Shown: one piece after another, positions 29,716 to 34,662 of the stretch
Layout: every line of letters starts with the position of its first letter
How positions within the stretch are numbered: the first letter of the stretch is position 1
Source: Candidatus Hodarchaeota archaeon
GTDB lineage: Archaea; Asgardarchaeota; Lokiarchaeia; Sigyniarchaeales; SOKP01
Direction: 5' to 3'
NCBI GenBank assembly: GCA_048886685.1
Contig: JBHLKM010000007.1
Coordinates: 111,190-175,189, forward strand
DNA length: 64,000 nucleotides
Translations under genes and position numbers: made by a program
The notes under the pieces: model-generated
Told to the model about the DNA's origin: nothing
Databases searched by the model: none
The model's input: the letters and a program-made list of their open reading frames with translations, nothing else

Positions 29716-30270
29716 CTACTTGTTAAAGTTCCGAGTATTGTAAACCAGTTCAATTTGTCTATTTAATATTGAAGTTAGAAAATAAAAAGCTTCATTTACA
29801 TTAAGACCTGTTTTTGAAGATGTTGTGAAATATTTTAGAAATTTATGTTTTTCCATTAGATTTAAGATTTCTTCTTCTCTAACAAGAATTTTATCTTCCA
29901 AATCGGCTTTTGTTCCTATTAAAACCATTGGTATAGTTTTGTTTTGTTGTTCTATAAGATCAACCCAATCATCAATCCTTTCTAAAAATCGAGGATTTTT
30001 TGTTAAATCAAACAATACTAATGCGCCCTTAGCACCCATAACAAAACTATCTAAGAGAAATCTAAAGCGCTCTTGTCCAGAAAAATCCCAGATTTGAAGT
30101 GAAGTAGAAGCACCAGTCGCAAAAGTAAGGACTTTATTGAAAATCTCAACACCAATCGTCATCTTAGTATCAAACTTAAATCGATTTTCTATATATCTAT
30201 GCAAGAGAGTAGTCTTTCCAACTCCACCATCCCCCGCAACGATAATTTTAAATGTAGATTTAGCTGGCAT
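29716..30270 (-). CDS. Rab/Ras-like small GTPase
   Basis: GDGGVGKT, MTIG (switch I), WDFSGQERF, GTKAD, TSSKTG. No C-terminal prenylation Cys. Confidence 0.93.
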   Translation of the reverse strand: MPAKSTFKIIVAGDGGVGKTTLLHRYIENRFKFDTKMTIGVEIFNKVLTFATGASTSLQIWDFSGQERFRFLLDSFVMGAKGALVLFDLTKNPRFLERIDDWVDLIEQQNKTIPMVLIGTKADLEDKILVREEEILNLMEKHKFLKYFTTSSKTGLNVNEAFYFLTSILNRQIELVYNTRNFNK

Positions 30271-31287
30271 TTAGTTGGACCTCTGCTTATTAACTTTTTT
30301 TCGTATTATTTTTAATTCTTTTTCACTTTCAAAAAGTAAATCCAAATGTGCAAAAGCCATTTCATTTGAGATTTTTCCTTTTTTTAAATTACTTGCTATC
30401 TCATTTAGTAAATAAACGGGCGGAAAATATTGAAGATGAAGATCATATAATATCGAAATATATTTTTCACCATTAATCTGAAAATTGAAAATGATATCAT
30501 TAACACACGAGCCACTTAGCGTTTCTAAATCTAGTAATGTTCTTACTTTTTTCAAAGATACTGGTCCGTTGCTTAGAAGAGACATTATTTCTTTATATTC
30601 CTTAGAAATTAGTATCTGCAAACCTTGTTTTATTGCCAAAGTTAAGTCACCTTGACCAGAAAAAATTGTCTCTTTAAAATCTTGTAAAGTCTCATTTGCT
30701 TTACTTAAATAAGATTCTTTAATTGGGGAATATTTTGGATTGTTTGAGATTTTTTCAATAGTCTGCTTATGTGGGATTTTGAAAATTATGAAATCTCTTA
30801 CTAAAAAATAACATTCAAAAAAAGTTTCATTTAACCACCGAGATTTGACTAAATTTGTTTTAATGAGTGGTAAAATCACTAATTGAAAATTATGTTCTTC
30901 AAATTCAGGATATTCAGAAATAAGCCTTTCAACTAATTCATTCGAATTAATTGGTCCCTCAGATAAAATTTTTAAAACTTCAGTACGAATTGGTTCGTTA
31001 TAAATGGATGCTAATGCCTCATATTCTGACATATGGATAAGAGATGTGAATTCTTTCGCTTTCTTTTTAGCTGTTAATAAATCTTGATAAACAATTTCAT
31101 CTCTCACAGAAAGATTTGCATCTAAAAACAGCATGATCGCATGTTCCGGTTTACCATGTATGAATATATATTCAAATGGAAAATATTTCTTATCATCTAC
31201 AATATTAACTGGGATTTCTAAATCAATTACTTTTTTACAGAATGAACAATGCACTCTAACTTTTTTCATTTTTACCACATTCTTCAC
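30271..31287 (-). CDS. Putative Zn-binding (CxxC..H..H) domain + tandem winged-helix-like protein
   Basis: HCSFC...FIHG.PEHAIMLFLDAN; IRTEVLKILSEGPIN and EIMSLLSNGPVS repeats. The start may be ATG 31269. Confidence 0.65.
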   Translation of the reverse strand: MKNVVKMKKVRVHCSFCKKVIDLEIPVNIVDDKKYFPFEYIFIHGKPEHAIMLFLDANLSVRDEIVYQDLLTAKKKAKEFTSLIHMSEYEALASIYNEPIRTEVLKILSEGPINSNELVERLISEYPEFEEHNFQLVILPLIKTNLVKSRWLNETFFECYFLVRDFIIFKIPHKQTIEKISNNPKYSPIKESYLSKANETLQDFKETIFSGQGDLTLAIKQGLQILISKEYKEIMSLLSNGPVSLKKVRTLLDLETLSGSCVNDIIFNFQINGEKYISILYDLHLQYFPPVYLLNEIASNLKKGKISNEMAFAHLDLLFESEKELKIIRKKVNKQRSN

Positions 31288-34200: not shown

Positions 34201-34662
34201 CTGGTGAACGCCTTGATCGTGTTTTGAGACGGATCCTGCACTGATTTCAATTTCAACATATCCACCAGATTGCCAACCATTATTTGTAAATCTGGTTGGA
34301 TTATTACAGGCGTATATCCAATTAGTGTAATTTAATGGAAAATCACCATTTAAAACTTTGTCTTTCTTTATTGAAATTCCTTCATAAGATATTGTTACAT
34401 TTTGTGAATTCCATCCCTCAACTAAGGTAAAATGGACATTTGTAGGTAAGGAAGATGGAAAAAAAGTATTCAATGTGGTAGCGAACTGATTTATTAATAA
34501 TGGTTTTGAATTTGGAGGGGATGTTGATTGAATAGGGATTTCAAAATTTTTAACTAAATTATTGGAATCTTTTCTATTATTATATTCATTAGAATGAAAT
34601 GAGATTGATAATAAAAAGACTAATATCAATATATTCAACAATAGAGATTTTCGGATCTTCAT
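31288..34662 (-). CDS. Large cell-surface glycoprotein (signal peptide, Ig-like beta repeats, C-terminal TM anchor, basic cytoplasmic tail)
   Basis: MKIRK + hydrophobic signal; many NxS/T sequons; ~100-aa repeats (e.g. GIYIIDLDTSSLELGDYYVSFNASK, GFLILFNSSGLSVDSYPIYIELSH); TM TILTISVISIISIAALVTLGVFI followed by KR-rich tail. Confidence 0.8.
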   Translation of the reverse strand: MKIRKSLLLNILILVFLLSISFHSNEYNNRKDSNNLVKNFEIPIQSTSPPNSKPLLINQFATTLNTFFPSSLPTNVHFTLVEGWNSQNVTISYEGISIKKDKVLNGDFPLNYTNWIYACNNPTRFTNNGWQSGGYVEIEISAGSVSKHDQGVHQQNFSIAQPFNDNSLASFSIDYFFDSNVPSPPENLTLYLAIVINGIEVNKTISFSELTKNAWTNTKLIYNPSMYGQILPGNVSIKTGLYALSDLSLTAAQQFIQIDNIKYEIWTMPNKPYLLKALDFHSSLNYTYYNLSYGRGYSFIDVERITNTTTNIEFTIYQNLTNIIDIQIKNISINSYLVKSFNSTFMGVEGSYYSIDLQIGWETNFIISNPLLYSSTLIQIKKPMDWDIVSIYDGFGVNKTESCLGTGIGSKTITIPTEIINQGLWNIEATSIDYITGGNTAVWNGTSYEDSSILMYADLFQIHTTLNDTFPLDDTIVRCTIQYPNGSTFLNETSPASQIVAFGDYTVDQNMIVGEYEVLLEWTNNESSIMRDKIGFERFHFTVWHNTSLKAIKSYFETMVGAPLLVKVNFTDIDIGTYIDFASITYNTSYGTEGYAIYLGSGIYIIDLDTSSLELGDYYVSFNASKDYYQSQEMKDLIEVKIIAEPLALQLPCGILEVEGNSFIKVQVNVTGLNTGSYYWPANISSDWQNYYTINDFNNGTWEFNLSTFNLPTFGIPEFYSITFSSNKTGYGSTTDSITLKINPVPTRAQVNESIIQIHPNHNFNLVVNYTIESSGELIDGANISIIWSSTYNCTPFSNGFLILFNSSGLSVDSYPIYIELSHIGYETAFIVAYVMIIPAETQLLLLNPEPIEIIRGDRVNISCLYVSDGQNLINSSLSLVGDIIGTFKWNGTEFYSTINTQNLESKSYLIQILATNQNFEPQLRDLIITVFPLDINIQISSLTFKFKEGQSNKVDFTVFDESHNCISTEFNVSCEYNGKSQLLHPVSNDSYQLDLNSLNLNPFRSNHQIKIVVSNPYGEDEIIILIVYTSLFETILTISVISIISIAALVTLGVFINKRYLGLSKFQRKIRTVKKKFKNQKFDKIYEPSRENIIKNLINNQYLPSKIPFKDKYRAEFKMKDKK

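Follow-up and report, generated by a model that had tools for sequence, protein, structure and literature searches.

The 64,000-nucleotide stretch of DNA considered here (the window; positions 111,190 to 175,189 of contig JBHLKM010000007.1, assembly GCA_048886685.1, from the Asgard archaeon Candidatus Hodarchaeota archaeon) carries on its minus strand three consecutive open reading frames (ORFs), at 31288–34662 (1124 aa), 30271–31287 (338 aa) and 29716–30270 (184 aa), which encode in this order a predicted surface glycoprotein (gene 1), a soluble candidate adaptor that joins a CxxC-H-H module to tandem winged helices (gene 2) and a Rab-like small GTPase (gene 3). The trio is found again in other Asgard genomes, and its products may form a unit that ties a small GTPase to the cell surface.

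Products and boundaries of the three genes

Gene 1 has the hallmarks of a type I single-pass surface glycoprotein, with an N-terminal hydrophobic segment as signal, a beta-sandwich ectodomain, one transmembrane helix and about twice the expected number of N-x-S/T sequons (37 against 17.6), and its homologues are 45–69% identical over the full length. No Pfam family lies above its cut-off for this protein. In the AlphaFold model (mean predicted local distance difference test score, pLDDT, of 64; about 60–89 in the domains, the middle part being poorly modelled), residues 98–267 (33862–34371) adopt a jelly roll of the carbohydrate-binding module (CBM) type (VIA Z 12.5, root-mean-square deviation (rmsd) 2.8, 140 residues aligned to 2c4x) that also matches CBM15, CBM4 and CBM22 entries and is a candidate glycan- or ligand-binding head. 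A stalk of some five immunoglobulin (Ig)-like beta-sandwich domains, assigned from the modelled strands (about residues 543–1032; 31567–33036; pLDDT about 60–89), gives fold matches to titin, ICAM and S-layer proteins. The transmembrane helix (residues 1034–1058; 31489–31563), seen in the model as well as in the hydropathy profile, leads into a basic cytoplasmic tail of 66 aa (31291–31488; 22 K/R versus 6 D/E), the first ~45 aa of which hold a conserved motif, F.RKIR..KK ... SRE..I, common to surface proteins linked to the WH2 domain described next.

The soluble adaptor is modelled with high confidence (pLDDT 96, predicted template-modelling score 0.88) as a five-stranded module followed by two winged helices in a helical frame, and again no Pfam family exceeds its cut-off. 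The first part, a CxxC...H....H module of five strands and one helix (residues 4–64; 31087–31269), is defined by the model and by conservation, with C11, C14 and H41 invariant in 43 homologues, H46 mostly kept, and D53 and R59 also conserved; the module presumably binds zinc. Its profile retrieved nothing significant from the sequences of the Protein Data Bank (PDB), the cereblon thalidomide-binding domain at E 0.13 being a lead only, and a pattern scan of the genome contigs using the adaptor gave no match. The second part, the tandem winged-helix domain ‘WH2’ (residues 78–320; 30319–31047), aligns by hhalign with longin-WH2 proteins at probability 100 (E 3e-41, 247 columns, the match beginning at residue 76). 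Homology over the whole ~240-aa domain places gene 2 in an Asgard WH2 family, of which it lacks the N-terminal longin-like domain, residues 1–64 being the CxxC-H-H module in its place. The zinc-type adaptors constitute one nested clade in the family tree (support 100; clades here and below come from quick trees and carry Shimodaira–Hasegawa approximate likelihood-ratio test (SH-aLRT) support only). Each winged helix has the winged helix-turn-helix (wHTH) fold of the ArsR/PadR type, with Z up to 8.6.

Gene 3 encodes a stand-alone GTPase of 184 aa that scores 138 bits against the Pfam Ras family (cut-off 21.6; E 2.7e-40), has intact G1–G5 motifs including WDFSGQ, and finds its best PDB matches in Rab14 and Thor-Rab 7ezb (E 1e-29). 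Motifs and profile mark it as a Rab-like member of the Ras superfamily, and the missing C-terminal geranylgeranylation cysteine motif sets it apart from a eukaryotic Rab proper. The C-terminus is free of cysteine, which is the norm for Asgard GTPases: none of the 93 GTPase-domain genes found in this genome encodes a cysteine in the last four residues, and GTPases without a lipid anchor have also been published for Loki and MK-D1 (PMC4917890, PMC10933270). The missing anchor was therefore rejected as special evidence, and the proposal of an initial annotation, made from the letters of the DNA, that protein-based recruitment replaces prenylation in this GTPase cannot be derived from a feature that all Asgard GTPases share. 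The same annotation had described the products as a 1124-aa single-pass protein with Ig-like repeats and a basic tail, a soluble CxxC..H..H plus tandem wHTH protein, and a GTPase with intact WDxxGQ and no lipid anchor; these descriptions hold, the first with the tail length set at 66 aa and the jelly-roll head added, the second by virtue of the 43 homologues and the model, and the third with WDFSGQ and the cysteine-free end. A second Rab-like GTPase of the window (39392–39928, minus strand) has the switch II Gln replaced by Glu (WDFAGE) and adjoins an Lrp/AsnC regulator.

The three minus-strand genes had been described as a zero-gap operon with a Shine-Dalgarno-like motif at each junction. They lie where that annotation put them, and are free of spacers when each is taken as its longest ORF, which is also the basis of the 338-aa length of gene 2. 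The motifs are likewise present, but the first of them, AGGTGA at 31284–31289 (minus strand), overlaps both the gene 1 stop and the GTG at 31287 and therefore cannot serve the latter as ribosome site. It is complementary to the 3′ end of this genome's 16S rRNA and stands 5 nt ahead of a conserved GTG at 31278; since the distance from GGTGA to the start codon peaks at 5–6 nt across the genome, gene 2 probably starts at GTG 31278, giving a protein of 335 aa (30271–31278) and a 9-nt gap after gene 1. The database entry for the protein is 335 aa long, and one orthologous locus also has a 9-nt gap. Ahead of gene 3, a GAGGT site (30279–30283, minus strand) lies 8 nt before the ATG. The spacer at this junction is 26 nt in orthologous loci L021–L024, 12 nt in L251 and −4 nt in L026 (L-numbers denote loci and G-numbers genomes, G000 being this one), so the zero-nt spacer before the GTPase is limited to this lineage. 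Zero gaps were rejected as special evidence, as tight junctions are common in this genome (among 2231 co-oriented gene pairs, 28 have a gap of 0 and 302 a gap of −8 to +10). Co-transcription of the three genes is likely; a promoter and terminator scan, based on a bacterial model, gave no excess over shuffled sequences.

A recurrent cassette and its probably tail-reading adaptor family

The trio is found again at 61–79% identity amid other flanking genes (L021–L024, L251). In the window it sits between the gene at 29126–29656 and the tyrosyl-tRNA synthetase gene, which are neighbours in G011 and in G017 (the latter with 92% identity at the flanking gene); there the synthetase directly follows the ortholog of 29126–29656, leaving an empty site. 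At the upstream edge of the cassette, blastn reveals an insertion footprint (34882–35092, no strand assigned) that contains a ~170-nt 3′ remnant (74% identity) of the oxidoreductase-like gene 36630–37364 and a second copy of ~40 nt from the 3′ end of gene 29126–29656, and suggests that the cassette came by recombination from a relative. At 43–45% identity, the operon contains two or three GTPases. The gene order in L250 is surface protein > GTPase > adaptor > GTPase > longin-like protein > GTPase; in L026 a GTPase flanks the adaptor on either side, and in L041 a GTPase stands ahead of the surface protein and adaptor. One clade (SH-aLRT 94) has 14 rows, of which the cassette GTPases fill 11, and the upstream copies of L041, L026 and L250 form a subclade (support 100) despite the altered gene order. 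The recurrence in Asgard genomes that the initial annotation had called for is thus seen: judged by gene content, the trio is a mobile unit that moves together, with its GTPases retained through changes of order. A full-length zinc-type adaptor turned up in only 4 of 398 genomes, with few candidates scored per genome.

Several observations accompany these loci. The adaptor gene is split in two at L252:9352–10322, and an in-frame stop lies two codons past the conserved GTG at L022:1325–1352; each may reflect decay or an assembly error. The longin-like product of L250 (5826–6671, plus strand), which lies between two GTPases, is a 281-aa protein with a longin-like N-terminus, of which contig C8 of this genome encodes two close paralogs. 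The convergent zinc/wHTH gene at 29126–29656 (plus strand) was considered as a part of the cassette and rejected, because it belongs to the core genome, lies where the insertion occurred and does not accompany the orthologous cassettes. Its 176-aa product pairs the CxxC-H-H module (E 4e-15) with a winged helix at the C-terminus, and the gene is convergent with the ortholog of the 39392–39928 GTPase gene in about 14 of 21 genus relatives.

The wider WH2 family, present in 306 of the 398 Asgard genomes, mostly begins with a longin-like domain and is repeatedly associated with surface proteins. In this genome, 5 of 12 WH2 proteins are fused behind the transmembrane helix of single-pass surface proteins of 1212–2677 aa, and another four directly follow a surface-protein gene, at a distance of 0 or −1 nt between longest ORFs. 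Of 64 WH2 loci surveyed in other genomes, 23 adjoin a single-pass protein or are fused to one (background 1.6%) and 12 adjoin a co-oriented GTPase (background 1.4%), ratios that are indicative only, since the loci were chosen as best hits instead of being drawn at random, related loci do not count as independent and a single genome supplied the background. Three WH2 loci, from separate clades, have surface protein, WH2 and GTPase together.

The juxtamembrane tail motif is common to all nine WH2 partner proteins of this genome. A tail profile built from the zinc-type partners only finds the longin-type partners as its next matches in the genome, and the full tail profile matches 10 proteins there, nine of which are its seeds, as well as numerous surface proteins that neighbour WH2 genes in other classes. 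At 20 loci whose products share the ectodomain of gene 1 (residues 1–850, about 35–45% identity) and end in a different, fused domain of ~250 aa, none has the tail motif or a WH2 neighbour; the link between surface protein and WH2 therefore tracks the tail and not the ectodomain. The tail persists in the zinc type, where the longin domain is gone, and the likely reader of the tail motif is therefore WH2. Overall, the paralog fusions and the shared tail motif leave the predicted link between surface protein and adaptor well supported.

The loci of this comparison hold further features. The ectodomain-sharing proteins (L195–L214) are lokiarchaeial surface proteins of 1150–1770 aa, and their fused cytoplasmic domain appears by eye longin-like with a C-terminal winged helix, with no Pfam or PDB match and no significant match to the WH2 family. 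The sole tail-motif protein of this genome without a WH2 link (G000:C21:194–2104) lies at a contig start. In G176, similar tails are encoded divergently from WH2 genes of 415–417 aa, and the 417-aa WH2 gene of this genome is near a contig end. TrmB-like wHTH proteins of 650–734 aa are encoded directly after two WH2 paralogs (L031:330–2282 and L034:383–2587; contigs C20 and C11 of G000), and the 734-aa protein starts with the zinc module.

The proposed adaptor–GTPase link and competing readings

The zinc module occurs in about a dozen copies in this genome and in nine of ten other Asgard genomes searched. At 35 loci of nine other genomes, seven zinc-module genes directly follow a co-oriented stand-alone GTPase (background 2.5%), and the GTPases concerned come from about five scattered places in a quick tree. 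P0113, P0161 and P0162, which belong to one lineage, are fusions of the module with a GTPase. Of 17 GTPases near longin-WH2 genes, 16 group in a single clade, all with an N-terminal extension of at least 110 aa that is longin-like by eye; the change from longin to zinc module in the adaptor thus coincides with a change from extended to stand-alone GTPase. The zinc-module neighbourhoods, the fusions and the cassette GTPase clade lend indirect support to a link between adaptor and GTPase. A complex prediction of adaptor and GTPase with GTP and Mg scored 0.00 (mark 0.32), which is no answer and weighs neither way.

In the reading we prefer, the surface glycoprotein would hold its CBM-like head outward on the Ig stalk, the juxtamembrane tail motif would bind the tandem winged-helix half of the adaptor, and the zinc module, in place of the longin-like domain of the ancestral family, would bind the co-encoded Rab-like GTPase; the unlipidated GTPase would thereby be brought to, and probably be regulated at, the sites of the surface protein. 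Taken as a whole, this falls a little short of an even chance. Its parts fare better, as a contact between tail and WH2 is quite probable and a functional link between adaptor and GTPase reasonably likely; direct contact of the zinc module with the GTPase, control of the nucleotide state and dependence on a ligand are further steps that we infer. The receptor, adaptor and GTPase switch of the initial annotation thus stands in the recurrence of the trio and in the pairing of surface protein with adaptor, whereas its adaptor–GTPase step has indirect support only.

A number of observations weigh against this reading. It is built on gene content, predicted folds, co-inheritance, domain swaps and fusions, and is genomic or predicted throughout. 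None of the 11 WH2 paralogs of this genome has a co-oriented adjacent GTPase, and the survey of WH2 loci draws on best hits, dependent kin, a one-genome background and genomes with ~90 GTPases each. The zinc–GTPase fusions amount to three close clusters with a divergent GTPase (WEAAGQ). Elsewhere, 28 of the 35 zinc-module genes, and most of those in this genome, have no co-oriented GTPase neighbour, from which the module appears promiscuous, if biased towards GTPases. The nearest solved folds of WH2 are DNA-binding repressors. In G190 (L029/L040) a surface protein–adaptor pair has no GTPase nearby, and the GTPase closest to the pair in G029 (L025) lies 2 kb off and belongs to another subclade; three further ortholog contigs are too short for the GTPase neighbourhood to be judged. 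The P0113 fusion itself (L132:2537–3340) combines the zinc module with a small GTPase that is divergent, its G3 motif being WEAAGQ.

The same components could also operate from the inside out, the GTP-bound GTPase binding the adaptor as its effector and so sorting, clustering or positioning the surface protein as cargo, much as Arf acts with coat adaptors, with no signal from outside. The co-inheritance data fit such an arrangement equally well, and one tail and adaptor family serving varied ectodomains of 540–2700 aa resembles a sorting signal; however, each surface protein is paired one-to-one or fused with its own adaptor, which is better suited to a dedicated unit than to a shared sorting machine, and we regard this alternative as unlikely. 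It is likewise improbable, in our estimation, that the surface protein–adaptor pair is real and the GTPase a co-regulated passenger, or one that acts through another protein, for example a longin protein, and leaves the adaptor untouched. The arrangements in G190 and G029 favour this possibility, as do the abundance of GTPases (about 90 in this 4.4-Mb genome), the extra longin-like gene of L250, which could encode the true GTPase partner, and the finding that MK-D1 GTPase genes generally lie outside the operons of their regulators (PMC10933270). Yet a single GTPase clade accompanies the cassette in at least three different gene orders and came in with it at the insertion, and the zinc module is independently tied to GTPases. 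Transmembrane control of transcription, in which the tandem winged helices would act as an ArsR/PadR-like DNA-binding dimer made of one chain, which the tail tethers at the membrane until a signal frees it (in the manner of an anti-sigma factor or BlaR/BlaI, with the fusions recalling ToxR), is more doubtful still: structural comparison ranks ArsR, PadR and BlaI repressors highest (Z 7–8.6), the family profile matches HlyU at E 9e-4 and some members match TrmB or HTH_5, but Z under about 8 denotes a common fold only, acidic residues on average outnumber basic ones in both recognition helices and both wings, whether in the zinc type or in the wider family, the WH2 family is tied to longin-like domains and GTPases, and winged helices act as protein scaffolds in ESCRT-II and Npr2/Npr3 (PMC11188069, PMC3521125).

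Relation to known systems and wider context

In plan, the cassette is like a longin-type GTPase platform, yet by the features tested it is not a member of the NPRL2, DENN or conservon systems. The parent Asgard family, at 360–380 aa with a longin-like N-terminus and tandem winged helices, resembles NPRL2/NPRL3 (Npr2/Npr3) of GATOR1, the GTPase-activating protein for RagA; a wHTH triad has been described for Npr2/3 (PMC3521125), and the longin domain of NPRL2 carries the arginine finger (PMC12290439). The window adaptor differs from NPRL2 in lacking the longin domain, in its Rab-like rather than Rag GTPase, and in having a surface-protein tail as partner. The nearest eukaryotic models to a longin-type paralog are NPR2 (template-modelling (TM) scores 0.41 and 0.38, about 190 residues aligned), DENND11 and C9orf72, all at TM ≤0.41. 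For the C-terminal wHTH array, the longin-type paralog gives only this modest match to NPR2, the fold lists were filled by other wHTH proteins, and no NPRL2/3, ESCRT-II or DENN chain is among the fold or profile matches listed, an absence that excludes nothing. Gene 2 further differs from a DENN module in lacking the central alpha/beta cDENN and the helical dDENN, its confident model showing two winged helices instead. Liu et al. (10.1101/2020.10.19.343400) report Asgard NPRL2-like longins and an operon of DENN, a Rab-like GTPase and a LAMTOR1-like roadblock protein, which loci L077–L080 (longin-WH2 > 280-aa GTPase > 110-aa protein) resemble; their NPRL2-like and DENN groups may overlap the parent WH2 family, and the operon passage itself speaks neither of a surface protein nor of a tail motif or zinc variant.

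Actinobacterial conservons, composed of the sensor kinase-like CvnA, the roadblock protein CvnB, the DUF742 protein CvnC and the Ras-like GTPase CvnD (PMC13343842, PMC11343762), already join a sensor to a small GTPase, so the analogy to receptor-to-small-GTPase signalling drawn in the initial annotation is not unprecedented in prokaryotes. The cassette differs from a conservon in having no kinase or roadblock gene, with no genes of the CvnA, CvnB or CvnC type and no corresponding Pfam matches; at the membrane it has a CBM/Ig glycoprotein whose tail is short, and its adaptor is unrelated by the tests run. Gene 3 shares the core fold, the motifs and the truncated, cysteine-free C-terminus with Thor-Rab (PDB 7ezb) and other unlipidated Asgard Rab-like GTPases (PMC10933270), but whereas no partners or membrane link are known for these, it has conserved candidate partners. 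ArsR/SmtB and PadR repressors have the same winged-helix fold (rmsd about 2 Å over 70 residues), from which gene 2 is set apart by two copies per chain, by acidic recognition helices and wings and by the lack of an identified ArsR metal site. A literature search, with subscription papers mostly outside its coverage, found no paper on the pairing of surface protein and WH2 or on the zinc variant; what is new here is the zinc-for-longin swap with its matching GTPase change, in a cassette with an empty site.

Asgard genomes contain dozens of Rab-like GTPases that have neither a lipid anchor nor known partners, and whether, and in what way, these gain access to the membrane is an open question. 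Operon neighbours have been proposed as a route to Asgard GTPase function (PMC4917890); a separate study remarked that genome layout seldom permits such neighbour-based reading (PMC10933270). For one such GTPase, the cassette offers a soluble, expressible candidate partner of 335 aa and a membrane-proximal peptide of 45 aa, and the small size and solubility of the one and the shortness of the other make the surface–GTPase link testable in vitro without culturing the organism. The longin-to-zinc swap amounts to a natural dissection that predicts which half of the adaptor binds the tail and which the GTPase. It is conceivable, if tentative, that the cassette represents a modular Asgard surface-to-GTPase system of interchangeable ectodomains, one tail motif, a WH2 reader and a swappable N-terminal module that picks and switches a GTPase according to the ligand of the ectodomain; the longin-like module would then serve GTPases with an N-terminal extension, and the CxxC-H-H module stand-alone Rab-like GTPases. 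Were this so, the zinc module would represent a kind of GTPase regulator not described before, and the whole would amount to a pre-eukaryotic means of putting unlipidated Rab-like GTPases on a membrane. Elsewhere in the window, 22560–28406 holds MutS-like (961 aa) and MutL-like (625 aa) genes, recognised by eye, with a membrane-protein gene on the opposite strand between them.

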